NCBI GenBank assembly: GCA_003864475.1
Contig: BGZO01000005.1
Coordinates: 1-52,763, forward strand
Direction of reading: 5' to 3'
From: Candidatus Termititenax persephonae
GTDB taxonomy: Bacteria; Margulisbacteria; Termititenacia; Termititenacales; Termititenacaceae
Length of the DNA: 52,763 bases
The notes below the pieces were generated by a model. That model was given only the letters and a program-made list of their open reading frames with translations. It was not told where the DNA came from and did not search any database. Below, in pieces: positions 12,509 through 40,430 of the stretch (position 1 is the stretch's first letter; each line of letters starts with the position of its first letter). A program made the translations under genes and the position numbers.

Positions 12509-12799
12509 TTGAGTAAGTGGGGGGAGAAAGAGGCAAAAAAAGCCGTGCGACCCTTGCCGACTAAAGATAAATTATTAAAAGCTGGCGAGCTGGCCAAATT
12601 GGCTGGTGTGCTGGTTTCAACAGTCCGTTTTTACACCAAGCTGGGTATGCTCTCCGCAGACGGCTACACCCCGGGCAAGTACAATCTTTACGCGCGCGAC
12701 AAGGCGCTCAAACGCTTGCAACGTATCGAGGGCCTGAAGAGACGAAGGCTTACTCTGGACGAGATTGTTGCCACGCTCGGTGTGAGGGAAGTCCGATGA
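12509..12799 (+). CDS. MerR-family HTH protein (DNA-binding domain only)
   Basis: LKAGELAKLAGVLVSTVRFYTKLGML...LQRIEGLKRRRLTLDEI; stop overlaps the next start (ATGA). Confidence 0.8.
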   Translation: MSKWGEKEAKKAVRPLPTKDKLLKAGELAKLAGVLVSTVRFYTKLGMLSADGYTPGKYNLYARDKALKRLQRIEGLKRRRLTLDEIVATLGVREVR

Positions 12800-15501: not shown

Positions 15502-15519
15502 GGTGATAACGTAAACGGT

Positions 15520-18500
15520 GTGGGGACAGAGGTGCGCGCCTCGGCCAATCGAAATTATTCTGTGGCGGTCATCTCTCCCGATGGCACATATTATCTGCGT
15601 ATCCAGACGGTGGACGCGGTGGGCAATACGAGCGCTTGGCAGACGGTGTACACCTATGTCCTCGACAGTACTATCCCGACCGGGAGCGTAACCATCAACG
15701 CTGGGGCAGAATGGACGAGCCAGAATAGTGTTACGCTGACTCTGGACTTTTCCGCTGATGTGGTGTCGATGAATGTGGACGGCGGGACACCGAGCGGTAT
15801 TATGGCAGTTCCGCTGAGCAAGACTATGCTGTTTACCTTGGCGGGAGACGATGGGGAGAAGACCGTTACGGTTACTTACTATGACGCGGCGGGTAATACC
15901 GCCAATCCTGTCGTGGACACTATCAAACTGGACAAGACTAGGCCGGGAATGGTGGAGGCGGGCGGGATTTTGCCGCCCTCTACTAATCCGACCCCGGCCT
16001 TGAGCTGGACGGTAACAGAACCACTCGACCCGCTGGCAGGCGGCGTGGCCTCTGGCGTAACGACTTACAATATTTACTGGGGCGACGCTGAGGACGGCAC
16101 GGCAATAACCGCCGTCAGGTCGTCGCCGAATGTTACTTATAATCCGACCATCTCTGGTGGACAGGAGACGACGTTTAACTTGCGGGTACAGGTGGTGGAC
16201 GCGCTGGGCAATGCGGGCGATTGGCGGACGGTCTGGGTCTATCCTTTTGACGATAAACCGCCGACCGGGAGCGTGTCGATTAACGTGGGCTTCAATGAGT
16301 CATTTACGAATAGCAGTTTGGTTACTTTGAATCTGGCTTACTCGGCGGATGTGGTATCTATGAATATCGCAGACGATGACGGGCAGGTCTCCGCGAACTT
16401 GGTGCCGAATGCGGTTTACCTGTGGAATTTCCAAGCGGATGGAGAAAAAATAATAACCGTTATTTTCTCTGACGCGGCGGGCAATAGTTTTACCGCGACG
16501 GACAGCATCAAGGTTGATGCTTATCCACCCAATTTAGATGCGGCCTACTATATAGATTCCACCGCCCCGACGCAGAATTTTGCGCTGGCTCTGGAATTCT
16601 CGGAAGAGATGCTTGATACAGCTGTTCCGCTATTTTCCTTTGACGCGGCGGGCGGAGTGGGGCTTGACGCGGCCAGCGCGTGGAATGCTGTCAGCCTTAA
16701 TTTTTATGATTTGCTCCTTGACGTAAGCGGTGCGACGGGCTGGGTAACGGTTAATCTGACTGGCGGAGCCAAGGATTTGGCAGGCAACGCGGCGGTGCCG
16801 AGTCCCCATTTTGCGGTCTTCTATATTGATGCTATTGCGCCGAGCGGCGGGGTGGTCATCAATTATGGCGAGGCTTTGACTGGCAACCCGGAAGTCATCA
16901 TCCTGCTTGACCCGCGCGACGACCATTCCTTGCCTGGCGAGATGTTCTTTATGCTTGTTACGCCGGATTCGGAGGTGTCCGATAATGCCGGGATTACGGT
17001 CAATGAATGGTTGCCCTATCAGCCGACTTTTTCGGTCAATCTTGAGGAAACACTTGGCACGAAAAATATTGCCGTACGCTTCAAGGACAAAGGGGGCAAT
17101 GAGAGCGGCCTGATTACGGCGAGCATTGTTTTGGATGACAGCGCGGTGCTTTGGTTGCTTCCGACATTTAATGTCGTGCTGGACGGCAATGCTGTCCGCG
17201 TGGTCAGCAGTAATGCTGATACGGAATTCCGTTTCAAGTCGCCGTATGCCTCAGGCGGGGCGGATTTTTATGTGAGCGTCAATGGCCTCTTGCACTTGAT
17301 TACCGCCAATATTCCGCCCGACCAATCTGGAGTTTACACTTACGCTTGGGCTACTTTGCCGCTGGTGAGTTCAGGTTCGACGGCGGCAGTGGAGTTCTAT
17401 GCCGCGGTTACTAAAGACGGCCAGTCCGTCCTGTGTGATAACCCCCTGACGGTGGGCGTGGACAAGGCCGCGCCGTCCGTAACCATCAATGTTCCCAATT
17501 CGCTGGCGATTAATTACGTGCCTACAGGCAGTGTGATTATTTCCGGCACGGCGACGGACAATGAGCAAATCACGGCAGTGGATTATGTGCAGGTGGATAT
17601 TTATCAGCCAGACGGCACCTTGGCTCATTCGGCTAAAGTGCCGTCAGCCTCTTTTGCCGACGAGGTTTGGGAATATACAGGCTGGACTATTCCTGCCCTG
17701 CCGAGCATTAACGCCACTTACAATATCGAGGCGCGGGCTTATGATTTGCTGGGCAATGTTTCGCTGGTGGCTACGTCCAGCGTGGTCAAGACGGATTTGT
17801 ATACCCGGATTTACCTTGATTCGCCGCCGACCGCCGCCGTGTCTCCGCGGGTCTGGTTGAGCAATCCTATCGTGGCCTCCGGTACGGTGGAGACCTTTGT
17901 CGAACTGGACCGCCTAGAGGTTACGTTCAACAATAGTATTTTCGGCAATACAGTCGGCACGGACAATTGGACGGTATCAATCAATCCGTCCGCCAGTGAT
18001 TTTACCCAGTGGACTGAAAATCTCAATCCGTCGACTTTGACTTTGAGCGCGGTTTCCATAGACAACCCGCCGAAAATCAGTAGCCAAGTTTTCCAATTTT
18101 GGCTGGACGGTGTGCCGCCGAATCTCGTAACTATTAATGTTACGCCAAATTATCATACGGCGGGGACGCTGAATATCACCGGTAATTTTGCGGATGCGCA
18201 CTCCGGTGTGTCGGCTGTGCTGGTCAGCGTGAACAATGCCACGACGACTATCAGCAGTGCGGCGAATTTTGCCTATGTGGTTAATCTGTCAGCGGCTGTG
18301 CCGGAAATGCTGATTGACTTCCGCGCCCTCGACAGCGCTTATCCGACACCCAATGAGTCCGCTTGGCTGACCTACAAGCTGGTTTATGACGAGGTGTTAC
18401 TGCCGACGGCTATGATAACCAGTCCCGTCTCCGGCTCTTATGTCAATAACGTCATGACGGTAACTGGTACGGCCGCGGTCAAAGACGGAAGCTCGGTCGC

Positions 18501-20160
18501 GGGTATCTGGCTGGATTTTGGTACGGGCTGGGTAACGGCGCAGATTACCGACAAGACTGCCCACGCGGCGGACTGGCAGTATCTTTGGAGCGTGCCGTCG
18601 GCTGACCCGGATGGGCAAACGTATTTTGTCTCGGCCAGTGTCTTGTCCGCCGCTGGTATGCGGTCGGAAGTTTCCCCAGCGGTGCTTGCGGTTTATCACA
18701 AGGATAGTTCCGGTCCGACAAGTAATTTTCTGAATCTGGCCCATGGTATTTTCCTGTCGCAGAGTCAGTTTATGGTGGCCGCGGAAACGCTCACGGAACG
18801 GGCAAAAATCCAAGAGGCTTATTTTATGGTCGATGGCGTAACCCAAAATCCTCCCTTCACGCTGGCTCCCGGCGCGTCCCGGTCAAATGACAATGTTTCT
18901 TGGAATTATTCTTGGGCGTGGAACAATCAGACGCATGAGGTTTTCATCCGCGCCGTGGACACGGCAGGCAATTGGACGGACTCGCCAACCATCTCTGTCC
19001 GCAGCTTCTCCGATGTTTTGACCGACCCTCTGCCGCCGGATGGGCTTATCCGCTTCCCCAATGACAAGGTTTACGCGACCAGTGTCAATAACGTAGCGCT
19101 GGATTTGCCTTACGACCCGGCGGCCAAGGTCAGGGTGTCTATCGCTGGTAGCGCCGCGCCGCCGCTCCCAGCCGTTATCGCCGATGACGGCAACGGTCGA
19201 CTCCGGGTCGAGCTGGATTCGGCCGCGCAGGAGACAGTGTATCTCATTAATATCTTGAATCCCGATGACACTTTGGCTTATCAGCAGTTGGTCATGTACG
19301 ACATTACGCCGCCGCGGGTCATCTATGATTTGGCGGCTCTGCAGAAGTACTATCAAGGCGCGATATTTTCGCTGGACAAGGATTTGGAATTCGAGATTCG
19401 GCTAGTGGACCGGGTTGCCTCCAGCAATAATAAATTTGCCCTATTGCCGCGCGGTAGTGGGTTTAATGCGCCGAATTTTGCCGACATCACGGGTGCTGAT
19501 TTGGCTGGAGCCGCCGCCAATACAGTATTGTTTTCTATATTCCAGGGTGGCACGACGGTCAATCAATCCGTGGCGGACAAGCGGTACGACCAGCGGAGCG
19601 AGACGCTGAGTTTCAAAGCCAGTTTGGGCAAAGGAACTTATGATTTGGCCTTGTTTGCGGTGGACAATGCCGGCAATAGAATGGATGTTGATTTTGATTT
19701 GCACAATATTTTGGACGTTGACCAGAAGAAAAATGACAATCTCCTGACCATGCTCGATGACTTGGGTACCACCAACAATATTTTTGTGATTAAAGGCTTG
19801 TCCATTGATAAGATGGCTATAAGCGAGTCGGGCGGTTTGGATAAAAAGAAATTCATCACGGCTTATCCTAATCCTTGTGATCCGGGCAAGGACGACCTGT
19901 TCTTTACCTATCACTTAAAGGACAATGCTTCCCGCGCCAGAATCATGATTTACAATCAAATTGGCGAGTTGCTTCACGTCATTAGCGTGGATGAGCCGGG
20001 TTTGGACGGCACGCGCGTCGGCTATAACCAAGTGTCGTGGGACGCTCTGGATAGGCACGGCCGTCTGCTGTCCAACGGTGTGTATATTTACATGATTGTG
20101 ATTGAGGGGAGCAAGGAACGGACATTTGCCAAAGGCACGCTGGTTGTGATTAGGAGATAA
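15520..20160 (+). CDS. Giant repeat surface protein, C-terminal part with T9SS/FlgD-Ig-type C-terminal domain
   Basis: Same frame as 12796 and continues the interrupted repeat. Ends AYPNP...IYNQIGELL...VSWDALDRHGRLLSNGVYIY...KGTLVVIRR. Confidence 0.85.
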   Translation: MGTEVRASANRNYSVAVISPDGTYYLRIQTVDAVGNTSAWQTVYTYVLDSTIPTGSVTINAGAEWTSQNSVTLTLDFSADVVSMNVDGGTPSGIMAVPLSKTMLFTLAGDDGEKTVTVTYYDAAGNTANPVVDTIKLDKTRPGMVEAGGILPPSTNPTPALSWTVTEPLDPLAGGVASGVTTYNIYWGDAEDGTAITAVRSSPNVTYNPTISGGQETTFNLRVQVVDALGNAGDWRTVWVYPFDDKPPTGSVSINVGFNESFTNSSLVTLNLAYSADVVSMNIADDDGQVSANLVPNAVYLWNFQADGEKIITVIFSDAAGNSFTATDSIKVDAYPPNLDAAYYIDSTAPTQNFALALEFSEEMLDTAVPLFSFDAAGGVGLDAASAWNAVSLNFYDLLLDVSGATGWVTVNLTGGAKDLAGNAAVPSPHFAVFYIDAIAPSGGVVINYGEALTGNPEVIILLDPRDDHSLPGEMFFMLVTPDSEVSDNAGITVNEWLPYQPTFSVNLEETLGTKNIAVRFKDKGGNESGLITASIVLDDSAVLWLLPTFNVVLDGNAVRVVSSNADTEFRFKSPYASGGADFYVSVNGLLHLITANIPPDQSGVYTYAWATLPLVSSGSTAAVEFYAAVTKDGQSVLCDNPLTVGVDKAAPSVTINVPNSLAINYVPTGSVIISGTATDNEQITAVDYVQVDIYQPDGTLAHSAKVPSASFADEVWEYTGWTIPALPSINATYNIEARAYDLLGNVSLVATSSVVKTDLYTRIYLDSPPTAAVSPRVWLSNPIVASGTVETFVELDRLEVTFNNSIFGNTVGTDNWTVSINPSASDFTQWTENLNPSTLTLSAVSIDNPPKISSQVFQFWLDGVPPNLVTINVTPNYHTAGTLNITGNFADAHSGVSAVLVSVNNATTTISSAANFAYVVNLSAAVPEMLIDFRALDSAYPTPNESAWLTYKLVYDEVLLPTAMITSPVSGSYVNNVMTVTGTAAVKDGSSVAGIWLDFGTGWVTAQITDKTAHAADWQYLWSVPSADPDGQTYFVSASVLSAAGMRSEVSPAVLAVYHKDSSGPTSNFLNLAHGIFLSQSQFMVAAETLTERAKIQEAYFMVDGVTQNPPFTLAPGASRSNDNVSWNYSWAWNNQTHEVFIRAVDTAGNWTDSPTISVRSFSDVLTDPLPPDGLIRFPNDKVYATSVNNVALDLPYDPAAKVRVSIAGSAAPPLPAVIADDGNGRLRVELDSAAQETVYLINILNPDDTLAYQQLVMYDITPPRVIYDLAALQKYYQGAIFSLDKDLEFEIRLVDRVASSNNKFALLPRGSGFNAPNFADITGADLAGAAANTVLFSIFQGGTTVNQSVADKRYDQRSETLSFKASLGKGTYDLALFAVDNAGNRMDVDFDLHNILDVDQKKNDNLLTMLDDLGTTNNIFVIKGLSIDKMAISESGGLDKKKFITAYPNPCDPGKDDLFFTYHLKDNASRARIMIYNQIGELLHVISVDEPGLDGTRVGYNQVSWDALDRHGRLLSNGVYIYMIVIEGSKERTFAKGTLVVIRR

Positions 20161-20162
20161 AA

Positions 20163-21257
20163 ATGAGACGCTGGATAGGGCTATTGTTAATTTGTGCCGC
20201 GAGTTTCGCCGCTTTTGAGGTCAATGGCGACGGTGCGCCCGTGGACTTTACCAAAATCGGCTCATCCGCGCGTTTCTGGGGCATGGGCAAGGCAGGCGTG
20301 GCTTTGGCAAACGATTCGGGCGCCTTGCTGCTCAATCCCGCGTCGATGGCGCTGGCGCATTCGTTGGAGCTCAGCGCGATGCACACGCAGACACTGGGCG
20401 TGAGCAATTATACTTTGTTTAACGGTGTTCTGCCTTTCAATAATAAAAATTTGATTTTTGGTTTCTCGTTTATTCATGAGGATGCGGGGACAATATATGA
20501 AACTAACGGTCTGGACGCAAACGGCTATCCGCTCAAAGGTGGCACGATTGACAACAGCAATGTTGTCGCCAGCCTCGGCTTTGGCGGCAAACTGTCCTTG
20601 TTTGGTGGACAACGGAATACCTATCTCGGCCTGCTCCTAAAGAATCATCAACGCCACTTGGGCGAACTGACTGCCGGCGGCACGGCGTTAGACTTGGGCG
20701 TGATTTATCGGCTAGGCCACATTTTTTCGCTGGGACTCAATGTGCGTAATGCTTGGCAGAGCGGTCTGAATTATTCTGTTTCTGAGCGGAGCGGTTTTGA
20801 GCATTATCCGACGGAGTATGTGGCGGGTTTTGCCTTGACGATGCTGGATAATAATCTGATGCTGGCCCTTGACAAGGCGATTAGCGAAACGGACAGCAAA
20901 ACATACTTCGGCTTGGAATATATAATTGCCGAGACGGTCTCCCTGCGTTCTGGTCTGGCGGATAAGGATATGACGCTGGGCTTAGGGTTGCGCCTGGTGG
21001 ATTTGCAGTTTGACGTGGGGTATCGTTATCAAGACGCGCCGCTGGACAATCAGCTTTATTTTTCGATTACTTACGGCAATGCGCGTAGCCTGTTTATGGA
21101 TGTGCCGACGGACTTGGAGATTATTGACGCGCCGCGTGCGGAACCGGAGAAGATTGTCGTTTACCCGCCGCCTGTTGAGCCGCCGCCTCAATCCACGTAT
21201 AATGATAAGCGGACTAACGTTGCTATAGAGAATCGTCCAGAGGAGATTACCTTATGA
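20163..21257 (+). CDS. PorV/PorQ-family (UPF0164-like) outer-membrane beta-barrel
   Basis: Signal peptide; SARFWGMGKAGVALANDSGALLLNPASMA family motif; amphipathic strands such as ALDLGVIYR and GLEY...LRSG. Confidence 0.75.
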   Translation: MRRWIGLLLICAASFAAFEVNGDGAPVDFTKIGSSARFWGMGKAGVALANDSGALLLNPASMALAHSLELSAMHTQTLGVSNYTLFNGVLPFNNKNLIFGFSFIHEDAGTIYETNGLDANGYPLKGGTIDNSNVVASLGFGGKLSLFGGQRNTYLGLLLKNHQRHLGELTAGGTALDLGVIYRLGHIFSLGLNVRNAWQSGLNYSVSERSGFEHYPTEYVAGFALTMLDNNLMLALDKAISETDSKTYFGLEYIIAETVSLRSGLADKDMTLGLGLRLVDLQFDVGYRYQDAPLDNQLYFSITYGNARSLFMDVPTDLEIIDAPRAEPEKIVVYPPPVEPPPQSTYNDKRTNVAIENRPEEITL

Positions 21258-23509
21258 CGAAAAAGTTAAGGTTTTTGCCGCTCATTCTGTTGCTGACTCT
21301 GGCGCTGACGGCCGAGCAGATTACCTATACGGCCAAGGAAAAAATTTCCCTGCAAGGCAAAGCTAATAGCAATGTATTGATTGAAGTTTATGTTAATGTC
21401 AAAAAGGTAGCGGAAACCAGGACGAATGATAACGGCGAGTGGGTGGCCTACAATATCCCGCTCAACCTCAATACCAAGAATGAACTGTATGCCGTGGCGG
21501 TCAGCAGTGATGGCATGCGCAGCAAGACTTCGACCAAATTGACTATTATCAATGACACGACCATTCCTAAAATTTATAGTGCGGTGCTGGAGCCGCCGCG
21601 TGCTAAGCCAGGCGATACGGTCAAGATTTATGCCAAAGTAGAGGACACAGTTATTACAGCGCGGGCAATCATGCCGGACAATGCCTTGGTGGCCCTGCTC
21701 CCGCCAACCAACAGCAATATCGACGACAATTGGACGGGCGAGTGGAAAGTTCCCGAAAAAATCACGGGCGGGACTTACAAAGTGCTGGTCGGCGCGGCCA
21801 ATCGTGTTGGCACGCAGGCGCAGAATAGTGAAATAGACCTTTTGATTGATGCTAAGGCAAGTGTGCTTGTCCAAGCCCCCTTGGACGGTGCGCGGATTTA
21901 CGATGACACGCTGGTTGTGAGCGGCGTGGCACGCAATAGCGTGCAGGTCGAGGCCGGAGTTGAGCGGCTGGATTTACAGCCTGACGGGTCTTTTTCAGGC
22001 CTTTACCGTATCCCCAAACCGGGGCGCAATCAATTGATTGTAACGGCGCGGGACAGGTCAGGCAGTACTGTTGAGCAGGCCGTCAGTTTTATCAAGCTGA
22101 TTACGTTCCCGGATATTCAAAATCATTGGGCGAGAGCAGAAATAGAATACTTGGCGACGCTGGGCTATATTCAGGCTTATGAGAGCGGGGCTTATGCTCC
22201 CGATAACGGCATTTCGCGTGCTGAACTGGCGACCTTGCTGGTCCGGGCGCGGCAAATGTCCACGGCACAGTATTCCGCCTATACCACCTCTTCATTTCTG
22301 GATGTGCCGAAAGGCTACTGGGCTTTGGGCTATATCGAAGCGGCGGCGAACAGCGGCATTGTCGAGGGTTATCCCAACCGCACGTATAAACCGACCAATC
22401 CTGTAACTAGGGTAGAGGCCGCCGCGCTCTTTATCCGTTTTGCCAATATCCCTCCTGCTGATGGTCGTGCCGCGGCGGATATCGATGTGGGCGATAGGCA
22501 TTGGGGGCGGGGCATAGTCTCGGCGTTCAAGTCCTCAGGCTTGATGCCTGACCAGTGGAAAAGCGAGCAGAGGTTTCAGCCCAATCGGGCGATTACCCGC
22601 GGCGAAGTAGCCGCTATTTTGGCCAGAGTGAAGAGCGTCAATGTGGACATTGAAAATATGCTTGGCCGCCCGACTACGTGGGCCAGCGGCGGCTCGGTCT
22701 TGCCCCAAGCCTTTGTTTCTAACGAAAACACCGCTCTTTCCGAGGCAACGACGGACGGCTCATCGGTTATCATGGCAGTTGTCCTGCCGCGCGATGTTTT
22801 GCCCGGCAATGACGTGATTATTTCGGTGGCTTGTATGCAAAAAATGCGGCAAGTGTCCGTGATTTTACCGGACAAGCGGCATTTGCCCCTGCAGTACAAC
22901 GCGACTTCCGACCTCTGGGAAAATAGCTGGCGTATCCCCAATGATTTAAGTTCGGGATTGTATCAGCTGCCAGTCAGGGCGTTGGCGGATAGTGGTACGA
23001 TATTTGCGGCACAGACTGACCCTTTTGCTGTAACCAACGCCCAGAAAATAAATCAGCCGTATCTGCCGCAGGAAACCCCGCAGACTTTTCCCGAACAGCA
23101 GACGACGGTTTTCAGCGGCGACGGCTATGTGTATCCGCCCGTAGTAGCGGCGGCGGCTCAACCTCGCGCTGACGGTGTGTCTGCCCCGGCTCCGGCGGCG
23201 GGCGGCACCTTGACCAGAGCGGCGGCGGCGGCTATTTTAGCCAAACATGGTTATCTGCGGCAGGCCAAAGTTTCTGCCCCGCCCGCCAAGGATGTCGCCT
23301 TGACGCATCCGCAGGTGCAGGTTATCAAGTCGGCTATTGTTACGGGTCTAATCCCGAATAAAAAACCCGGTTACTTCCTGCCCAACGACCACTTGACTTA
23401 TCCCGAAGCGGCGGCCATCCTGCAAAGAGCCAAAATCAGCGGCAGTGTGCCGCCAGGCCAGGGCAATATCTCTCCCGCTGAGTTTGAAGACTTGGTTACA
23501 CGTCGTTAA
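21254..23509 (+). CDS. S-layer homology (SLH) domain protein with Ig-like domains
   Basis: FPDIQNHWARAEIEYLATLGYI...ISRAELA, FLDVPKGYWA...VEGYPNRTYKPTNPVTRVEAA, FQPNRAITRGEVAAILAR; signal peptide. Confidence 0.88.
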   Translation: MTKKLRFLPLILLLTLALTAEQITYTAKEKISLQGKANSNVLIEVYVNVKKVAETRTNDNGEWVAYNIPLNLNTKNELYAVAVSSDGMRSKTSTKLTIINDTTIPKIYSAVLEPPRAKPGDTVKIYAKVEDTVITARAIMPDNALVALLPPTNSNIDDNWTGEWKVPEKITGGTYKVLVGAANRVGTQAQNSEIDLLIDAKASVLVQAPLDGARIYDDTLVVSGVARNSVQVEAGVERLDLQPDGSFSGLYRIPKPGRNQLIVTARDRSGSTVEQAVSFIKLITFPDIQNHWARAEIEYLATLGYIQAYESGAYAPDNGISRAELATLLVRARQMSTAQYSAYTTSSFLDVPKGYWALGYIEAAANSGIVEGYPNRTYKPTNPVTRVEAAALFIRFANIPPADGRAAADIDVGDRHWGRGIVSAFKSSGLMPDQWKSEQRFQPNRAITRGEVAAILARVKSVNVDIENMLGRPTTWASGGSVLPQAFVSNENTALSEATTDGSSVIMAVVLPRDVLPGNDVIISVACMQKMRQVSVILPDKRHLPLQYNATSDLWENSWRIPNDLSSGLYQLPVRALADSGTIFAAQTDPFAVTNAQKINQPYLPQETPQTFPEQQTTVFSGDGYVYPPVVAAAAQPRADGVSAPAPAAGGTLTRAAAAAILAKHGYLRQAKVSAPPAKDVALTHPQVQVIKSAIVTGLIPNKKPGYFLPNDHLTYPEAAAILQRAKISGSVPPGQGNISPAEFEDLVTRR

Positions 23510-27589: not shown

Positions 27590-29275
27590 GTGCTGCCTAA
27601 GTTGCAGGAAACTTTTTGGGGTTCTCCGGGTAAGAAATTCTGGTCGACAACATTTTTAACAACTTTAGTGAGGAATGTTAGCGTCTTGTCAGCAAGTCTT
27701 GAAGTGTCAAGTAGTATTGTAAGTAAAAATGTTTTTGAAATTTCTCCGCTGATTTGGGGAGTGAGTTTAGGCTCGGCCAGTTTGTCTTCTTTATTGAATT
27801 TAGCTGTCTTAACAGATTTTTTTAGTCCTGCCGCAAACAGAAACGATGTCGAAAAAAGCAAACCCTGGCTGGCTCCTGCGGAGTTGCCGCAAATCACTAT
27901 ACAAATCCCCTGTCGTAATGAGCCGCTGGATGTAGTCCAAAATGGTTCGCTAAAAAGCGCGTTGGCACTCAATTACCCCAAAGACAAATTAACTATTCAG
28001 TTAGTGGACAATAGCGAACAAGGAAAATATGAAGAACTGGCCGCTTATTGTGAGGAACAAGGGGTGCATTTTATTCACCGCGAGGGCCGGGACGGCGGCA
28101 AGGCCAGAAATCTAAATATAGGCTTAGGTTTATGGCCTGTGAACGGACAACGCTATGAGCCGCAAAGTGATCTTTATTTTTTAGTGGACGCGGACATCAC
28201 TTTTGAACCGGACACGCTCCAAAAACTTTTACCAGAATTCAAAGCCAATCCCAGACTGCCTTTTGTGGTTTGTGAGGCGGAGTCCAGCGGCGGTAATTTA
28301 TTTACCGATGCCATAGCCGCGACGCATCTGCCTAGGTTGTACCGCAGAACTAATACCGAGAAATACGGTTTTGCCAATTCCACGGGATTTGGCCTGCTCT
28401 ACAATAGACACGCTTGGAGTGAGATACAGGGCTGGCCGGAAGACAGCATTAGCGAGGACTGGGCGGCCAGTATGACAATCCGCGCCCGTTCGGAATACTG
28501 GACGAAAGGCCACAGAGTGAATTATGTGCGGCTTAGCGATCCCGTGCCGGCCAATCTGGAACGCTATAAAATACAGCAGGCGCGCTGGGTGCAGGGTACC
28601 CTAGAAAATATACGCTGGTATTTATGGCCTTTGCTCAAAGCCAAACATATTCCTTGGAATGAAAAGGTTGATGTGTTTTTCAAGGCTTGGGGTTACCCTC
28701 AGCAGGCAATGGCGCAGGTAATAATACCGCTCATTACTGTGAGCAGCGGTATTAGCGTTATCGACAACTATCTTTTGCTCAATAATGCCTCCGCCTGGCT
28801 GCAATCTCTAAGCAGCGTCGTCAGCCTGTTTATCATACCCTTTGTTTTGCTGGCCGGAGTGCCGATTGTGTTTCTTAAAATTAAGCAAGGTTCGGAATCA
28901 GCCGGGCATTATTTTCGGCATTTATTGACCGGGTCGCTGGCTGGCATCAGCGCCGGATTGGCGATAACGCGCGGAGTCGGGAAAGGTTTGTTCGGTGCCA
29001 AGAACGCGCTGTTTAATGTTACGCCTAAAGGGAATGTTCCCCAAGAAAATGCTTTATTAAGAACATTCCAGAAAAACTGGAAAGAAATTGCCTTTGGTTC
29101 GGGGATAGTGTTGTCCAGTATTTTCTTGCTGCCGGGCTATTTAGGACTGGTAAGTTTTTTCGGGCTGGGTTTTATAATTACGCCATTTATGTCTTTGATA
29201 AAATTCAAAAAATCAGAAAAAACGGATTTTCCAAAACAACAAGAAACTCAAGCGGACAAGCCCCACGATATGTAA
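27590..29275 (+). CDS. Processive GT2 glycosyltransferase (cellulose-synthase-like)
   Basis: IQIPCRNEP, VDNS, GGKARNLN, DAD, SED and QQARW (D,D,D,QxxRW) motifs; C-terminal TM helices; FNVTPK. Confidence 0.88.
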   Translation: MLPKLQETFWGSPGKKFWSTTFLTTLVRNVSVLSASLEVSSSIVSKNVFEISPLIWGVSLGSASLSSLLNLAVLTDFFSPAANRNDVEKSKPWLAPAELPQITIQIPCRNEPLDVVQNGSLKSALALNYPKDKLTIQLVDNSEQGKYEELAAYCEEQGVHFIHREGRDGGKARNLNIGLGLWPVNGQRYEPQSDLYFLVDADITFEPDTLQKLLPEFKANPRLPFVVCEAESSGGNLFTDAIAATHLPRLYRRTNTEKYGFANSTGFGLLYNRHAWSEIQGWPEDSISEDWAASMTIRARSEYWTKGHRVNYVRLSDPVPANLERYKIQQARWVQGTLENIRWYLWPLLKAKHIPWNEKVDVFFKAWGYPQQAMAQVIIPLITVSSGISVIDNYLLLNNASAWLQSLSSVVSLFIIPFVLLAGVPIVFLKIKQGSESAGHYFRHLLTGSLAGISAGLAITRGVGKGLFGAKNALFNVTPKGNVPQENALLRTFQKNWKEIAFGSGIVLSSIFLLPGYLGLVSFFGLGFIITPFMSLIKFKKSEKTDFPKQQETQADKPHDM

Positions 29276-29324
29276 GGTATATTTATAAGGGAAAAGGGTA
29301 TATATTTTGTATAGGAAGATAATT

Positions 29325-30899
29325 ATGCGTATATTTTACTGCAACCTTAATATAAATAAAATTAATGGAAAACCTCTTTCATTAAATTTAGGTATGCCTA
29401 AAACCAAAGATGCAGCGAGTGGGATAACGAAAGCAATACCTCAAACGGAAAATTCTTTTTTACAAGATTTTGTTAATAATCCACAACAAATTACAGTGGA
29501 CTATCAGTGTTCTATAACCACAGATGGCTTCGTTGGGTTTGGTTCCGAAAATAATATCAATGGTTTATTTCAGATAGAGCAAGACAGCGGATTTGTGTCT
29601 GCAGCCGATATTGAGACTGCCAAACACAATTTAGATGAATTGTTGAAGGCTATTAAACGGGAATTATTAAAACATCCAGAAAAACCTCTTGGCGACAAGA
29701 TTCTCCTTGCTTATATGGTTATCGAAGATAGTTTTGGTGGTTATATTGACGGGGTTAATAGTCCACTTTTAACCCACGCGTTGCTTAATAAAGAAATAGA
29801 TTGTGATACATCATCTCTGATTATATTAGCTTTGGCAGAGGAATTGAAGAACGACGATCTGGAATGGTCAAGCATTGGCATGGTTCTTATGCCTAATCAT
29901 GCCAGCTTACAATATGGCGATAGTTATTATGATAAGGGAGAAAAAATAGATAAGTCCAGATATGAGCGGCAATTTGGTATTCCTCAAGATATTGCTGATA
30001 ATCCGCTTAGAGAAAATGTTTTTGCGATTTTAGCTAATACAACTTGTGGCATCTTGGCAGGACGTAAAAATAATTATCAGAAATCCATTCAGTATTATGA
30101 CCAAGCGTTAGCGCTGAGTGCTTATAACTTTATAGCTTATTATAACAGAGGCATTAATCATTTCTCGCTAGCGCAAGACAAAGCTATCGAACTTGATTTA
30201 TTTAAAAATAAAGATATTGTCCCGTCCATGGCAGACAGAGAGTTTATTTTACAGCACTATACAAAAGCTATTGTTGATTACACACAGGCGAGTCAGATAA
30301 CGAGTAAATACGCCGGTTCCTATTATGGTATAATTGACTGTTGTATTGATTTAATAGATCTGAATATTGAGCCGGAAAAATATGGGCAGTTAGCCCTCGC
30401 TACTCATGCAGAAAAGACACGTGTGTATGGTGAAGACATGGATTCGCCTATAGAACGAGCAGCTGTCTATATGCACTTGCAAAACTATGTAATGGCAGAA
30501 CAAGAATTATATGCATCATTGAACGGATGGCGTAATGATGGTTATTTTCCGCGTACAATGGTAAAGGTGTATAAATTATTGGCGGAAGCTTTACGCGCAC
30601 AAGGCAAGGAAAGTGAGGCGGCGCGATTCGATTCGTATACAGTAGAAGATCTAGACGTGGATCAATTATTTCAACAGACTTTAGATAGCTTAAAGGCCAA
30701 GGATTATGACGGCGCTGAGACAAGTTTTCTGAATATGAAAAATGTTTTGGCTAAACATTATGGATTTACTGTGCATAGGTATTTTGCGGAAGATTTATTT
30801 TATGCAAAACCTGAATTTACAGAACAAGATAATATTCGTGCCATGGAGTTATTAGACGCTTGGGGCAACTTGCTTTTGCAGAACATGGAGACACAATAA
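29325..30899 (+). CDS. Hypothetical protein with transglutaminase-like Cys/His/Asp motif and TPR repeats
   Basis: IDCDTSS...MPNHASLQYGDSYYD, then YQKSIQYYDQALAL...AYYNRGI and YTKAIVDYTQA. AT-rich. Start placed at ATG 29325 (track start 29307). Confidence 0.7.
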   Translation: MRIFYCNLNINKINGKPLSLNLGMPKTKDAASGITKAIPQTENSFLQDFVNNPQQITVDYQCSITTDGFVGFGSENNINGLFQIEQDSGFVSAADIETAKHNLDELLKAIKRELLKHPEKPLGDKILLAYMVIEDSFGGYIDGVNSPLLTHALLNKEIDCDTSSLIILALAEELKNDDLEWSSIGMVLMPNHASLQYGDSYYDKGEKIDKSRYERQFGIPQDIADNPLRENVFAILANTTCGILAGRKNNYQKSIQYYDQALALSAYNFIAYYNRGINHFSLAQDKAIELDLFKNKDIVPSMADREFILQHYTKAIVDYTQASQITSKYAGSYYGIIDCCIDLIDLNIEPEKYGQLALATHAEKTRVYGEDMDSPIERAAVYMHLQNYVMAEQELYASLNGWRNDGYFPRTMVKVYKLLAEALRAQGKESEAARFDSYTVEDLDVDQLFQQTLDSLKAKDYDGAETSFLNMKNVLAKHYGFTVHRYFAEDLFYAKPEFTEQDNIRAMELLDAWGNLLLQNMETQ

Positions 30900-30913: not shown

Positions 30914-31013
30914 CTAATTATTCTTCGCTCAACAAAGCTAGCAGAGCCGCCAGATTGGCCTGCCAATTAATGGCCACTTCATTGGTCGACCAAGAATTTT
31001 GGTCATCGGCGTA
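30914..31013. repeat. 100 bp exact direct repeat of the GH9 3' end (other copy 34614-34713)
   Basis: Base-for-base identical from CTAATTATTCTTCG to CATCGGCGTA, offset 3700 bp. Confidence 0.95.
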
Positions 31014-31115: not shown

Positions 31116-33188
31116 ATGCATGTTGTCCCGCTAATCGATAACCATACAATTTCGCAAAAAAACAGTTCGTTGCGCCAATACACTCCGGCAAATCCGAATA
31201 TTGTTTCGCCAGAAGAACATGATTATTTTAAACCCAAACCCGCAAGCCTAGAAACGATCCTGTCGCCGGTCAGATACACCCTGCCTCTGCCAGGGTTCCG
31301 TACCCTGCCAGACATAATCCCGGAAACAGCATCCCCGGCTAAACCAAACCAGCCCCAAAATATTTTACTGAGCGTCGACGGCCAGCAAATACGCGGCGTG
31401 TATTGCGCGGAAGCGACCCAGCCGCTGACCATAGAAACCCCGGCTGACACCAGACAAAAGAATTTATCGGAATGTTTTACAGCCGCATTGCGCGGTGAAA
31501 CAACCAGCGTGGTCATCGGCGGCCTGTATTTTGACCTGACGTATGACACGGCAGTCGGACAATTTTCTCTGGCCAATGACGATACTGTCTACCACCTGCC
31601 TCTTGGTCCGGTTGAGCAAAAACCACCATTGTCAGAATCTCAAAATATTACCGCGCAAAACATAGGCTACACCGTCGACAACGCCCCCAAGCAGGGATTT
31701 GAAATATTAAAATCAATTATCTCCGCGATCAAAGACCACCCGGACGGAGACGCTGCCGCTATTCTATCTGATGTTCTGGACGGGTTAAAAACCATAGGCA
31801 AAGACCGCGCCATTGACCTACTAAATGACCTGTACTCCGCGCAGAAAAACAATCCTATCGATATTATCTTTCAACGCCGGATATCCGCCATTATCTATGA
31901 CGCAATTTATGCCCTGGAAACACTGGTTTATAAGGACAAGCTGGCCGCCGACAAAGCCGAATTTCAGGTAGCCGCGGCTGATATTGATGTCATAGGCCAA
32001 ACACGCAAACTAATGGAAATCCAACAGAGGTGGCAGCAAGAAATAGACAAATTGCCCAATGTCTCTAAGCGAGAGCCTCAGCAAAAATTATTGCACACAA
32101 AACTGCTAAATGAATTCTTGCTTAAAACTTTTATCGAGGAGATATTTTTGCCTGACTTATTCGACAAATATCCGCGCCTAGAGAATTCTATGTTCATGTT
32201 CGGTTTCGGCCGTTTATTGTCCGAAAACAACAAACTGGGAGCTTCGGCCGGCTCGGATATGGACTCCAATGTTATTGTCGGCTCCGGGCAAGGGACCGGC
32301 TCGATAATCTGTGAGAACGAAGCTGATGTCGAGACCATAAAACAGGAATTAAAAATCGCTCAAGAAGTTTTGGACGCTTATTTGCATCTGAATATGGAGA
32401 TCGATGATGAATTTACAGTTAGAAGTTTTGATGAGTTTGAGGAATCAATTTCTCCAGAAGGAAAAAACTTAGAAAATGACCCAGAAAAATCAACACAATT
32501 TTATATATCTATACTAAGAGATTATTATCAGTTTCATGAGCCAAATGAAAGGATTATATTGGACTTTCATAACGCTATTAATATTTCTGCTAAAAAATTT
32601 GACATAAGCTCGCCTATCCAAGCAATTTTTGAAGAAAACTTAAACGATTCTAGTAAGTACTCTATAGGCATGGCACATGGAGACGATCCCTTGCCTTTGG
32701 GCAATAAAAGATATACCGATAAAGTTATCGGTAGCGGCAACGAACAACCGGACAACTGGTATTTCTCCATGAAATACACGGTTAACCGCTTTTATGATTT
32801 TCTCTACAAACTGGAAAGTCTCAAAGGAACACCAGATGAAGTGAGTCTGTCTGCTGTTGGATTGAGCGAAAAAGACGCTTTGTTCATTAAGAATGTCAAT
32901 AATATGATGCTAGCTTTACAAAATTATGCTCTCAAGCTACATCCAGAAAACTGCGGCTATTTGTCCGCCGCTGACTTTCAAGAATTATATGCCCGCCCGG
33001 AATTCCGTCAGGAATTCAAGATAATTGCTGAAAAATTGAGTATTCAGCCGGGACTACTTGAAAAAATCAGTTCATCTTTTAACCAAGATTATAGAAAACT
33101 AGGCCATACATTTTTTAAAAGACTAGATGAAAAAATGTTTGGACTTCACCAAAAGATAGCCGCGGCTGACGCGCTAAAAAACCATTAG
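31116..33188 (+). CDS. Hypothetical protein with GlnE/GlnD-like nucleotidyltransferase motif
   Basis: FGFGRL...AGSDMDSNVIV resembles the Pol-beta superfamily G[SRK]...DxD motif; Pro-rich N-terminus; SD GAGGA before ATG 31116. Confidence 0.65.
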   Translation: MHVVPLIDNHTISQKNSSLRQYTPANPNIVSPEEHDYFKPKPASLETILSPVRYTLPLPGFRTLPDIIPETASPAKPNQPQNILLSVDGQQIRGVYCAEATQPLTIETPADTRQKNLSECFTAALRGETTSVVIGGLYFDLTYDTAVGQFSLANDDTVYHLPLGPVEQKPPLSESQNITAQNIGYTVDNAPKQGFEILKSIISAIKDHPDGDAAAILSDVLDGLKTIGKDRAIDLLNDLYSAQKNNPIDIIFQRRISAIIYDAIYALETLVYKDKLAADKAEFQVAAADIDVIGQTRKLMEIQQRWQQEIDKLPNVSKREPQQKLLHTKLLNEFLLKTFIEEIFLPDLFDKYPRLENSMFMFGFGRLLSENNKLGASAGSDMDSNVIVGSGQGTGSIICENEADVETIKQELKIAQEVLDAYLHLNMEIDDEFTVRSFDEFEESISPEGKNLENDPEKSTQFYISILRDYYQFHEPNERIILDFHNAINISAKKFDISSPIQAIFEENLNDSSKYSIGMAHGDDPLPLGNKRYTDKVIGSGNEQPDNWYFSMKYTVNRFYDFLYKLESLKGTPDEVSLSAVGLSEKDALFIKNVNNMMLALQNYALKLHPENCGYLSAADFQELYARPEFRQEFKIIAEKLSIQPGLLEKISSSFNQDYRKLGHTFFKRLDEKMFGLHQKIAAADALKNH

Positions 33189-33854: not shown

Positions 33855-33978
33855 GAAGTAAGTCTGTCCGCTGTTGGATTGAGCGCCAAGAACGCGCCGT
33901 TTATGTCCTTGATAAAATTCAAAAAATCAGAAAAAACAAATCTCCCCCAACAGTCCGAAAACTCAAGTGGACAAGCCC
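33855..33978 (+). repeat. Mosaic remnant of neighbouring genes
   Basis: 33855-33885 matches 32838-32868; 33885-33897 matches 28997-29009; 33895-33978 matches the GT2 3' end 29181-29263. Confidence 0.85.
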
Positions 33979-34612: not shown

Positions 34613-34617
34613 TCTAA

Positions 34618-37161
34618 TTATTCTTCGCTCAACAAAGCTAGCAGAGCCGCCAGATTGGCCTGCCAATTAATGGCCACTTCATTGGTCGACCAAGAATTTT
34701 GGTCATCGGCGTAAATACGCATCGCCGGATAAGTCTGAATGGACATGGCTATAGTGTCGCCGGAATACGCCACGCTGTTCGGGCCGCCGACCAGCAAGCC
34801 GTCCGGAGTAGGATATTGGCCGGACATAGATGGCCGGAAATGCGGCTGGCGCACTGATTTTTCGCCAAAACCAGTGATATAGGAAATACCGTTAGGATTT
34901 TTACCCAACAGATAATCCACTATTTTCAGTGCGCCCTGTTTATATTTAAGATTGCCAGTCTGTTTATAGATATACATTAACTCCAACCCGGCGGTGGCCG
35001 CTACGGAATTGGAACCCCAGTCAAATCCAGCGCCGATTCCGGCAAAAGCCAGACCGTAAGGATTTTCAGCCTGCCGCGCCAGCAAAGCATCCGCGTATTT
35101 AATTAACGCGCTCTCTATCTTCTGCTGTAATTCAGGGTCGGCGTTGGAATTGCGAGTATAAGAAAACAAGGCCAAATAATTGACGTTGCCCCAGTCCGGC
35201 GCGTTGTCGCCAAAGCGGTCTTGCGTCAACAGAGCGGGTAAATTGTCTTTAATATATTTTTGATATTTTGCTTCACCAGTGGCGTTAAAAAGCTCCACTG
35301 CCGCCCACAATCTTTCGTCTTGGTCTTGGTGGTCTGTGTAAGGCCCGCCGTATCTATGATTGTCATAAGTTTCCGCGGTCATAATTAAATCAGGATTTTG
35401 GACTAGAAAAGCCCAGGCTTGTTCCGCGGCGGCCAAATATTGCGCGGCCATAATTCTATCCTCGGCGACGGCGGAGTTTTTGTACTCGGCGTAGCCCAGC
35501 GCCATGGCCGCCGCGAAGTCTGCCGTGGCTGTGGTGGACACCGGAAGAACAGTTTTGAGCTGCGCATCGTCTTGCGGCGCGACTTCCGAAGCCAGCCATT
35601 CTGCCGCCGTTGCTTTATGATAGCAGGCTCCGTCCGTGCGCTGCATTTTGAGCAGAAAATCCAGTTCGTGTTTGACGATAGAGAGATAATCCGCCCGCGC
35701 CGCATTTTCGCGCGGCACCAGACCAGCGTCGTAAGCCAAATCATTGTCCGCATATTTTTTATTGACCAGCAGCAGACCCGCGCTGTAAGCGCCGTTGACC
35801 GTATATTTACCGTAATCACCGGCATCATGCCAGCCCCCAGAGACATCGATAGTCGTTTCAGAACCGTAAATTGGCGTTTCTTTATCCTGTTCATGAATAT
35901 TTCCGTAGGGTCCGTGTTCGCCGTCGGTAAACCATTTGAAGGCCAGTAAAGCGGCGTTACGTGTCGCGGACAGCCCGGCGGCGGGATTTTCTTTAAGGAC
36001 GACGGGTGTTTTTAATTCGCCGCTAATGCCGTTTTGTTGCGGCACAATCAGCGTGTATGTTCCCGGCTGTTCCAGCGCTGAAAAATCCAAAACCATTACT
36101 TTGGCTCCGGCATCTTTATAGACTTGATTGTAAGTTGACCTGCCAGTCCAGACGGCCTCTCCCTGTGTATTCTGTACCGAAAACTCCAGGCTGTCTACCG
36201 CACTATCCGCGGGAAGTTCCACAATGGCGGTCTTGGCAAAACCGCGGATATAACCGATTTGATTGCTCTGTATAGTTTGGTCATTGACTTGCGGCGCGGG
36301 TTCCGGCTGGACTACGATTTCAATATTGCTGACTCTGGCAAAATAATTTGTTGCTCCAGCGGTCATAAAAGCCAGCACGCCGATATTTTGCATCTCTTTA
36401 GGCACAATAAATTCATAAACGCCGTCCTGCGGCGGCACGAAGCCTTTAAGGTCGCTACCAAAATCCAGTTCAAAATTGCCGGGTTTCAGTTCAATTCCGT
36501 TCAGGGTTACTTGAAAAATTTTTTGCCCCCATAAAGCTCGAAAATCCTGTCCCACCTGTAAAGTCAGACGTAATGTTTTCTCGCCATAGTCTATGGTTTT
36601 ATTAACTACTACCGCGAACATTTCGCAATCGGCAAAACTGCTGTTGAGCCGTGGATCATAAATTTCAAAGCCGCCGGGAACCCGCCGACCCTGTAAACGG
36701 TTTTTGTCCCACAATGGTTCAATATGAGCCACGTTAATTTTTAAGACTTTTTCGTTTTCCGCCAAACCGCGGACAGGCTCCGTTATTGGACGAACCGCGT
36801 TATGCGCGGCATCCGGCTCCGGGTTTGGCTCAGAAACAATCGGCGCTTGAGCGCTGTAAACCAACTCTTTTAATAAATCTTCTTTGGTTTGGAAATGTTT
36901 CATTAGTTCGGCGACAGCGGCCTCAACTTCCGGCGTGTCAATAATATCGTTAAAAGCCGTGTCCTCGCGGCTTTGGGTGTCCACGAATTGCCGCAGAGTT
37001 CTCTGGTATTTCTGCGGCAGCTCGTCGATAGGCCGACCCTCTAGGATTAACTGCAAAGCTTGTTTTATTTCCTGCTCGGAATCAATCTCGCCGCTAAAAT
37101 CCGCGTCCGCGCGGCGCAGCTCTCTTTGATAGAATGCGGCATTATCAATGTTAATACCCAT
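34618..37161 (-). CDS. GH9 endoglucanase with Ig-like (CelD_N) domain and N-terminal EF-hand-like tag
   Basis: NQIGY, DVSGGWHDAGDYGKY, DERLWAAVELF, YLLGKNP, PHFR, YADDQNSWSTNEVAINWQA. Confidence 0.92.
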   Translation of the reverse strand: MGINIDNAAFYQRELRRADADFSGEIDSEQEIKQALQLILEGRPIDELPQKYQRTLRQFVDTQSREDTAFNDIIDTPEVEAAVAELMKHFQTKEDLLKELVYSAQAPIVSEPNPEPDAAHNAVRPITEPVRGLAENEKVLKINVAHIEPLWDKNRLQGRRVPGGFEIYDPRLNSSFADCEMFAVVVNKTIDYGEKTLRLTLQVGQDFRALWGQKIFQVTLNGIELKPGNFELDFGSDLKGFVPPQDGVYEFIVPKEMQNIGVLAFMTAGATNYFARVSNIEIVVQPEPAPQVNDQTIQSNQIGYIRGFAKTAIVELPADSAVDSLEFSVQNTQGEAVWTGRSTYNQVYKDAGAKVMVLDFSALEQPGTYTLIVPQQNGISGELKTPVVLKENPAAGLSATRNAALLAFKWFTDGEHGPYGNIHEQDKETPIYGSETTIDVSGGWHDAGDYGKYTVNGAYSAGLLLVNKKYADNDLAYDAGLVPRENAARADYLSIVKHELDFLLKMQRTDGACYHKATAAEWLASEVAPQDDAQLKTVLPVSTTATADFAAAMALGYAEYKNSAVAEDRIMAAQYLAAAEQAWAFLVQNPDLIMTAETYDNHRYGGPYTDHQDQDERLWAAVELFNATGEAKYQKYIKDNLPALLTQDRFGDNAPDWGNVNYLALFSYTRNSNADPELQQKIESALIKYADALLARQAENPYGLAFAGIGAGFDWGSNSVAATAGLELMYIYKQTGNLKYKQGALKIVDYLLGKNPNGISYITGFGEKSVRQPHFRPSMSGQYPTPDGLLVGGPNSVAYSGDTIAMSIQTYPAMRIYADDQNSWSTNEVAINWQANLAALLALLSEE

Positions 37162-37174
37162 GGCCGGGCTCCTT

Positions 37175-40430: not shown

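Follow-up and report, generated by a model that had tools for sequence, protein, structure and literature searches.

We have studied a protein module found at the N terminus of three adjacent gene products of Candidatus Termititenax persephonae, encoded within a 52,763-nucleotide (nt) stretch of DNA (contig BGZO01000005.1, positions 1 to 52,763; here termed the window). Two of the proteins are glycoside hydrolases, one of family GH9 and one resembling GH8, and the third is a small protein of 240 amino acids. Judged by sequence comparison, the module is a real and previously undescribed domain that is restricted to the Margulisbacteria, and in a comparative sense it stands where untagged homologs of these three types of cargo carry a Sec or lipoprotein signal. 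Our tentative interpretation is that the module serves as an N-terminal adaptor, specific to this lineage, for targeting or docking, by which its cargo would be delivered to the cell envelope independently of Sec.

The three genes all lie on the reverse strand. The open reading frame at 34618-37161 encodes the GH9 protein of 847 residues, which is a member of that family by its Pfam matches (Glyco_hydro_9, 261.5 bits against a cut-off of 27.7; CelD_N, 55.1 bits). The module (residues 1-105) is followed by an unassigned β-rich region of about 180 residues (~110-290), the Ig-like CelD_N domain (295-375) and the GH9 catalytic domain (420-841); an orthologue-like protein, P0004, has an identical domain layout. 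The next open reading frame (37175-37897) encodes the 240-residue protein, comprising a repeat, a degenerate repeat, a linker and a β jelly-roll, in which no Pfam or NCBIfam family was matched. In the GH8-like protein (720 residues, 38268-40430), the module precedes a GH8 domain that is split by an unassigned insert. Glyco_hydro_8 was matched here with E = 3.9e-16 and 59.4 bits (cut-off 24) in two stretches, the best covering positions 27-105 of the 341 in the profile, and the NCBIfam BcsZ-like equivalog scored 69.6 bits against its cut-off of 299.

The modules of the two enzymes (residues 1-105 of each) are encoded at 36847-37161 and 40116-40430, and were delimited by BLASTP, by alignment and by profile searches, together with AF2 modeling for the GH8-like protein. 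Two profiles were used, A2 built from nine modules and A3 from 28 N termini; we refer below to 28 distinct tagged proteins from 22 genomes. The two enzymes are 85% identical over residues 1 to ~103 and have no similarity elsewhere (BLASTP E = 1e-53 over 172 columns). The similarity extends to the DNA, where a direct repeat of 300 nt (36856-37155 and 40125-40424) is 83% identical.

The module is itself repetitive. The first-half profile (A3) also matches residues 45-89 of both enzymes, with independent E-values of 1.1e-4 and 3.5e-4 (3.0e-4 and 8.2e-4 in another search), and because a profile of the first half matches the second half too, the two-fold repeat is real. In the GH8-like gene, repeat 1 occupies ~40299-40430 and repeat 2 ~40164-40298. 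The unit is about 45 residues long; a short β-strand just after the methionine leads into a helix ending in A-D, followed by a variable loop that closes with the motif N-G-x-I-D-[ST]-x-x-E before the final helix. It occurs twice in the hydrolases, and once with a degenerate copy in the 240-residue protein, whose N terminus matches both halves of the module by BLASTP (E = 1e-4 and 7e-4). This protein is found by profile A2, from which its own row is absent, with E = 3.9e-9, and by profile A3, in which its row is included, with E = 2.7e-21 (2.8e-20 in another search). The single-repeat form of the module maps to 37724-37897 with the same two profiles, and the clear repeat plus the degenerate second one take up residues 1 to ~72.

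Comparison of codons suggests how the two enzymes have come to be so alike at their N termini. Between them 42 of the 105 module codons differ, 25 synonymously and 17 non-synonymously, and these differences are unevenly distributed. Codons 16-39 are identical in a run of 74 nt (37045-37118 in the GH9 gene and 40314-40387 in the GH8-like gene, both reverse strand), and codons 16-54 differ at just three positions, all synonymous, whereas the flanks contain many synonymous differences. Since an identical tract lies between synonymously diverged flanks, gene conversion between the 5′ ends of the two genes is likely.

We also examined the distribution of the module. A search of 1.84 billion representative sequences with the single 105-residue module returned nine at E ≤ 1e-3: the GH9 protein itself, two further GH9 proteins, three GH48-like proteins, two without a Pfam family, and one repeat protein (P0003). 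The last of these, a repeat-driven match, was left out of both profiles. It is a protein of 632 residues from elsewhere with six matches to residues 33-64 of the module (E = 9.5e-11); the matched part corresponds to the linker and second entering helix, with a motif of the type G-x-P-I-x-x-x-P-x-K-Y. It could be a distant relative of half the module or a chance match between repeats. Among the 146 genomes of the phylum, profile A2 found matches in 22. Profile A3 found them in 25, with one to five matches and one to four tagged genes in each; of the 72 genomes with a completeness of 90% or more, it matched 19. The source names of the matching proteins are Candidatus Margulisbacteria or Margulisiibacteriota. 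In the genome from which the window comes only the three window genes are tagged, and a related-loci search of genome contigs with the single module found no relative. The 240-residue protein has just two close homologs (83%-85% identity) in 5.8 billion proteins.

The position of the module is strictly conserved, beginning one to eight residues after the start codon in all 28 tagged proteins. No Pfam or NCBIfam family matched it above the family's own cut-off, and no PDB sequence matched below E = 0.8. None of the titles and abstracts retrieved in searches of the Margulisbacteria literature describes such a module; a 2019 paper on termite-gut Margulisbacteria, or its supplements, might mention the genes. 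An earlier, sequence-only reading of this DNA had pointed out the near identity of the two enzymes over their first 100 or so residues and in the DNA, the two-fold repeat, the divergent copy in the gene between them and the lack of a Sec or Tat signal, and had taken the tag to be undescribed. All of this is borne out, and the profile scan that it had proposed finds the tag well beyond the three genes.

Do the tagged proteins lack a signal peptide, and does the module take its place? The greatest Kyte-Doolittle mean over 12 residues within the first 45 residues was no higher than 0.77 in all 28 tagged proteins, compared with 2.07-2.92 in all eight signal-bearing neighbors and homologs. The tagged proteins thus have no hydrophobic core of the kind found in Sec, Tat or lipoprotein signals. 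For the three window genes the start codons are bounded by in-frame stops 3, 4 and 7 codons upstream, and Shine-Dalgarno-like motifs precede the ATGs. Homologs without the tag are different. Untagged GH9 proteins of genomes G140 and G104 (34%-36% identity) have a hydrophobic signal directly before CelD_N. GH8-like paralogs in G143 and G144 (388 residues at locus L041 and 687 at L050) carry lipoprotein-type signals and lie in clusters that hold tagged genes. A homolog of the C-terminal domain of the 240-residue protein in G101 (L048; 244 residues, 29% identity, E = 1e-10), encoded beside tagged genes, also has a lipoprotein-type signal, as do the sugar-binding proteins. The homologs of all three types of cargo being signal-bearing, the suggestion that the tag replaces signal peptides stands in this comparative sense.

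We turn now to the structure of the module. The AF2 model of the double module has a pLDDT of 85.9 and a pTM of 0.79, and comprises two helix-loop-helix units and a closing helix, with single-residue bridges at the loop isoleucines. Neither fold comparison of this model gave a significant match; with Foldseek the best E-value was 0.29 and TM did not exceed 0.34, and with VIA the best Z was 3.9, with lanmodulin at 3.1 and EF-hand rows at 2.6-3.1. The best PDB match, EF3-EF4 of ALG-2/PDCD6, aligned both loops at a sub-threshold E of ~1. Pfam EF-hand families were found among the 28 N termini in a few cases (EF-hand_1 in three, EF-hand_5 in five and EF-hand_6 in two), all below cut-off, and EF-hand_7 matched P0004 with E = 0.0043 and 17.8 bits, compared to a cut-off of 30. 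The language-model neighbors of the module that were listed are all EF-hand clusters (0.86). Taking these results together, the module is EF-hand-like and looks like a diverged EF-hand pair, below all thresholds. The structure comparison that had been proposed gives a divided answer: the secondary structure of the model fits a paired helix-loop-helix fold, and the fold libraries yielded no significant match, a result that speaks neither for a new fold nor against an EF-hand.

The canonical EF-hand loop has 12 residues, with ligands at positions 1, 3, 5 and 12. The sequence-only reading had fitted the loop of the window enzymes to this pattern. The fit is good at positions 1, 3, 5 and 9, and as these are good ligands, cation binding by the window enzymes is plausible; it fails at position 12, which is Q, the conserved glutamate being at 13. 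Across the 28 tagged proteins, in counts where two of the rows are mis-anchored, glutamate occupies position 13 in 26, D, N or S is found at position 1 in seven and at position 5 in 26, and glycine is at position 6 in 21. None of the 28 contains a canonical loop, and the length of the loop between A-D and N-G varies by up to about 12 residues. In many of the HEAT-type tagged proteins a C-x6-C pair is conserved after the loop.

The model of the 240-residue protein is weak overall (pLDDT 62), with a jelly-roll at residues ~85-240, the C-terminal 155 residues. The best matches to this domain were carbohydrate-binding modules (CBMs) among other jelly rolls, including a xanthanase module (Z = 8.9) and CBM8 (Z = 7.7), so that CBM-like is a reasonable, though not a specific, description. 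When the double module was co-folded with residues 1-85 of this protein, the score was 0.20, where the mark is 0.32; in this run, made without controls, the value speaks neither for nor against an interaction.

The tag is carried by diverse proteins. GH9 cargo is found in the window, G144 and G058, GH8-like cargo in the window, and GH48-like cargo in G145, G143 and G066 as well as in three representatives from the wider search; the jelly-roll cargo is that of the 240-residue window protein. Five tagged proteins have HEAT repeats, one of them together with DUF4116, one has eleven ankyrin repeats, one contains FlgD_ig, and several have no family. The tagged protein P0006 (535 residues) has porins as the nearest language-model neighbors of its C-terminal 425 residues (0.90-0.93), and its C terminus is an alternating hydrophobic stretch whose last residue is phenylalanine. 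That its cargo is porin-like is a lead only. A search with residues 110-535 returned just the protein itself, and against the phylum it matched through the module alone. The cargo of a related but different protein at L005 was found in two genomes, both of its own genus.

Two kinds of gene neighborhood can be distinguished. In all six loci with a tagged hydrolase that were examined (the window, L035, L041, L048, L049 and L050) a gene for a small tagged protein is directly upstream of that for the hydrolase. The clusters of G145, G098, G094 and G143 contain two GH94 phosphorylases, GH42-like and GH2 enzymes, ABC sugar-binding and permease components, GlmS and a GT2 glycosyltransferase. Tagged GH48-like, GH9 and GH8-like genes alongside ABC importers and GH94 make up the usual layout for depolymerization outside the cell followed by import. 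By contrast, the HEAT-type tagged genes sit after pnp, beside purL or queC, and in many tagged genomes one HEAT protein is the sole bearer of the tag, with no hydrolase tagged. In two distant families a tagged gene lies directly after the PNPase gene (a HEAT protein at 8958-10223 of L032, G085:C1, and a protein with no Pfam family found at 9663-11939 of L038, G142:C4), and because they share this site the subfamily may be old and vertically inherited.

Three giant proteins are encoded next to tagged genes, at L037 (G126:C1, 10469-16729; 2086 residues), L049 (G058:C6, 12649-18759; 2036 residues) and L036 (G094:C1, 2-7330; at least 2443 residues). They have no signal peptides and almost no Pfam families; the start of the 2086-residue protein is GH8-like, with 31% identity to the GH8-like protein of the window. 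The tagged GH9 of G058 is split into open reading frames of 472 and 424 residues by unknown bases (X) at ~2391-2484 of L059 (G058:C6), which probably reflects missing sequence in the record and not a disrupted gene.

We favor the envelope adaptor, as a tentative conclusion, on the basis of the strict N-terminal position of the module, the signal-bearing homologs, the types of cargo, the porin-like lead and the cysteine pair. In such a mechanism the folded adaptor would substitute for the Sec or lipoprotein signal of extracytoplasmic-type cargo, which it would pass on to a shared, lineage-specific partner. The GH9 protein, the GH8-like enzyme and the CBM-like protein would in this way arrive or be retained at the cell envelope without the use of Sec, and once outside, the EF-hand-like loops would lock the fold by binding Ca2+ or another cation. 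The homogenization of the module between the two enzymes fits a shared adaptor under common constraint. A more specific version, which we consider doubtful, is that the module is a cation-switched, foldable signal for export and anchoring, which takes proteins over the inner membrane by the flagellar gate or by an undescribed machine, with no need of Sec or Tat. Cellulase-type enzymes, the CBM-like protein, a porin-like barrel and HEAT and ankyrin proteins would then all be held at the envelope.

A number of observations weigh against delivery to the envelope. An inventory of routes in tagged genomes identified no export machine or receptor. In the five genomes inventoried, FHIPEP, secretins and TolC-like proteins (OEP) were each present in all five, VipB and Phage_sheath_1 in none, and TatC in one; TatC was not found in G085 (one contig, 95% complete) or G145 (four contigs, 99%). 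FHIPEP occurs in 135 of the 146 genomes, tagged or not, and so cannot tell the two groups apart. Inspection of the tagged sequences showed no C-terminal signal common to them. Canonical loops are absent and the fold searches were without significant match, as described above, and in its model the module is compact and folded, which known N-terminal export signals are not. Neighbors in the same clusters carry ordinary lipoprotein signals, which argues that the cell exports by Sec when it needs to and that the tagged proteins may simply stay inside. The HEAT-type genes lie beside housekeeping genes, and HEAT and ankyrin cargo is usually cytoplasmic. The absence of a detected GH94 from the source genome, G000 (89.9% complete), counts against both this interpretation and the cytoplasmic one that follows.

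The rival interpretation is that the tagged proteins stay in the cytoplasm, with the module as an assembly or regulatory domain. It would be an oligomerization or docking domain, possibly cation responsive, that joins the small protein to hydrolases acting on imported oligosaccharides, and in other lineages HEAT and ankyrin scaffolds would be joined into such complexes. We regard this as nearly as likely as the envelope adaptor because cluster neighbors use ordinary signals, HEAT and ankyrin genes lie beside housekeeping genes, and the folded module is unlike export signals. It would account for the lack of a signal peptide in all 28 proteins, and for lipoprotein signals being on those genes of the same clusters whose products need export. 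The clusters also hold ABC importers and cytoplasmic GH94 phosphorylases, and no dedicated secretion genes lie near tagged genes in the neighborhoods examined. GH9 enzymes with an Ig domain and no signal are known in other bacteria. On the other hand, the homologs of three cargo types are signal-bearing, a jelly-roll CBM-like protein and porin-like cargo make little sense inside the cell, and the strict N-terminal position of the module is left without explanation.

If the envelope is nevertheless the destination, could the flagellar type III apparatus be the route? The Ser/Thr/Ile-rich first ten residues together with the module would constitute the signal, the cation-free module remaining unfolded until outside. 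The presence of FHIPEP in every tagged genome of the inventory is consistent with this, and FlhB-family and rod proteins were found in G076 and G078, both of which lack a FHIPEP match. It is also the sole Sec-independent exporter using an N-terminal signal that was detected. Yet we consider it improbable. FHIPEP shows no link to the 25 tagged genomes, the N-terminal strand is part of the fold in the models, and no tagged gene lies beside flagellar genes in the 21 neighborhoods examined. Other possibilities were examined and set aside. A phyletic link between the tag and flagella is uninformative at 135 of 146 genomes. Hitch-hiking by Tat on the neighboring twin-arginine-like lipoproteins was rejected as a general route from the TatC counts, and a type VI or contractile injection route from the lack of VipB and Phage_sheath_1 in all five tagged genomes.

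The sequence-only reading had proposed a docking or export tag, which would mean either an assembly analogous to the cellulosome or secretion of cellulases without Sec. An undescribed domain that is carried by the GH9, GH8 and GH48 set and stands in the place of signal peptides agrees with the first part of this; kinship to dockerins was not found. A simple cellulosome is opposed by the presence of the tag on HEAT and ankyrin proteins as well, some of them encoded beside housekeeping genes, and by the ordinary lipoprotein signals of other genes in the tagged clusters. As a true dockerin analog, the exported module would bind repeats resembling cohesins on a surface scaffold, for which the Ig and SLH proteins at 12796-23509 are an example. 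The duplicated Ca-loop-like unit on GH9, GH8-like and GH48-like enzymes is what such a system would have, and Big_13 Ig-like proteins and an SLH protein are encoded within the window. However, there was no Dockerin_1 match among the 28 N termini at E ≤ 10, each repeat keeps an entering helix, unlike the loop-helix unit of dockerins, and the enzymes are without the signal peptide on which cellulosomal enzymes depend. The GH9 gene was not found in the seven other genomes of the family and looks like a recent arrival, and there are many genomes with one tagged HEAT protein but without a hydrolase that bears the tag. We think a true dockerin analog unlikely. An artefact, whether wrong starts that hide signal peptides or misassembled 5′ ends in an assembly of 201 contigs with a perfect 100-nt repeat nearby, is highly improbable, given in-frame stops 1-10 codons upstream in nearly all 28 proteins, ribosome-binding motifs before the ATGs, module copies that differ at so many codons, and identical architecture in independent assemblies.

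A ParE/Phd pair borders the three-gene cluster at one end, and genes for a dTDP-sugar epimerase and Trp-tRNA synthetase at the other. Across 26-40 kb of the window the G+C content drops from 0.50-0.57 to 0.38-0.48. GH9 cargo is found in six of the 146 genomes of the phylum, and in none of the seven other genomes of the same family. From the fall in G+C content and the absence of GH9 from these relatives, the cluster looks acquired, and the GH9 gene looks like a recent arrival in this genome (1.83 Mb). A GT2 of processive-synthase type (561 residues) and a TPR protein (530 residues) are encoded at 27590-30899, convergent to the GH9 gene. In G145 a GT2 of 715 residues is directly upstream of the tagged genes, and a glycan synthase may belong to the tagged system.

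The 3′ end of the GH9 gene (34614-34713, comprising the last ~96 nt of the gene and 4 nt beyond) has a second copy at 30914-31013 on the reverse strand, 3.7 kb away, which forms a direct repeat with it, 100% identical over 100 nt in a search for DNA repeats. The pair brackets a 3.7-kb block with open reading frames of 694 and 195 residues without a known family and a ParE_toxin/PhdYeFM pair, and reflects either a duplicating insertion or an error of assembly. Short copies of the 3′ end of the GT2 gene (29181-29238 and 33895-33952, 86% identity) and of the 694-residue open reading frame (32838-32887 and 33855-33904, 80%) adjoin each other at 33855-33952, which suggests past rearrangement in the area. 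The 370-nt intergenic region upstream of the 240-residue protein gene and the GH9 gene (37898-38267, reverse strand) contains two tandem units of ~115 nt with homopolymer runs of C10, ~C22 and ~A18. No Rfam family was matched within it, and it may act as a promoter region prone to slippage.

As an appended module of EF-hand-like or dockerin-like kind, the tag may yet prove to be a new sorting signal. Should it direct proteins to export or to docking at the surface, the Margulisbacteria, a little-studied and uncultured phylum with kinship to the Cyanobacteria, would have a protein-sorting signal of a new sort. Ca-loop tags would then have been invented a second time, independently, on the GH9, GH8 and GH48 set, which bears on the evolution of fiber-degrading complexes in termite guts. 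Were the export and anchoring version correct, a phylum whose members live attached to other cells would possess a dockerin-like system that needs no scaffold. If the proteins are cytoplasmic, the module would still be a new EF-hand-like domain family joining glycosidases and repeat-protein scaffolds.

Finally we compare the module with known systems. By the thresholds of the Pfam EF-hand and dockerin families it is a member of neither. Like the EF-hand pairs of calmodulin-like proteins and ALG-2, it is modeled with two helix-loop-helix units and a β bridge at the loop isoleucine, and it has glycine at position 6, an acidic residue opening the exit helix, and D or N at both position 5 and position 9. 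It differs in having glutamate at 13 rather than 12, D, N or S at position 1 in just seven of 28, no canonical loop and a variable loop length, and in falling below every Pfam EF-hand cut-off and below significance in fold comparison (TM ≤ 0.34, Z ≤ 3.9). With the type I dockerin (Dockerin_1, PF00404) it shares a duplicated Ca-loop-like segment of ~12 residues plus a helix, and the property of being appended to unrelated enzymes of one organism, of GH9, GH8 and GH48 types. Unlike dockerins, which are mostly C-terminal, it is N-terminal; it has an entering helix in each repeat and a closing helix, at about 100 residues in all, its enzymes lack a signal peptide, and it also heads HEAT and ankyrin proteins. 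Dockerin_1 was not matched in a hmmscan of the three proteins at E ≤ 0.1. No cohesin-like partner turned up, where the Ig-like and SLH proteins of the window were scanned with Pfam only and no cohesin-profile search was made.

In arrangement the module may also be likened to the adaptors of polymorphic secreted proteins (for example LXG of type VII and MIX of type VI secretion) and of phage tailspikes, in which a conserved N-terminal domain is joined to many cargoes, with few copies per genome and exchange of N-terminal sequence between paralogs. No relation in sequence or fold was seen, in an analysis that made no test aimed at one. The present system differs in that sheath proteins were found in none of five genomes, and that the cargo consists of glycosidases and repeat proteins rather than toxins. 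Serratia marcescens has signal-less chitinases that are released by a holin and an endopeptidase. Those enzymes have no shared N-terminal tag, but they provide a precedent for glycoside hydrolases without a signal peptide that act outside the cell.

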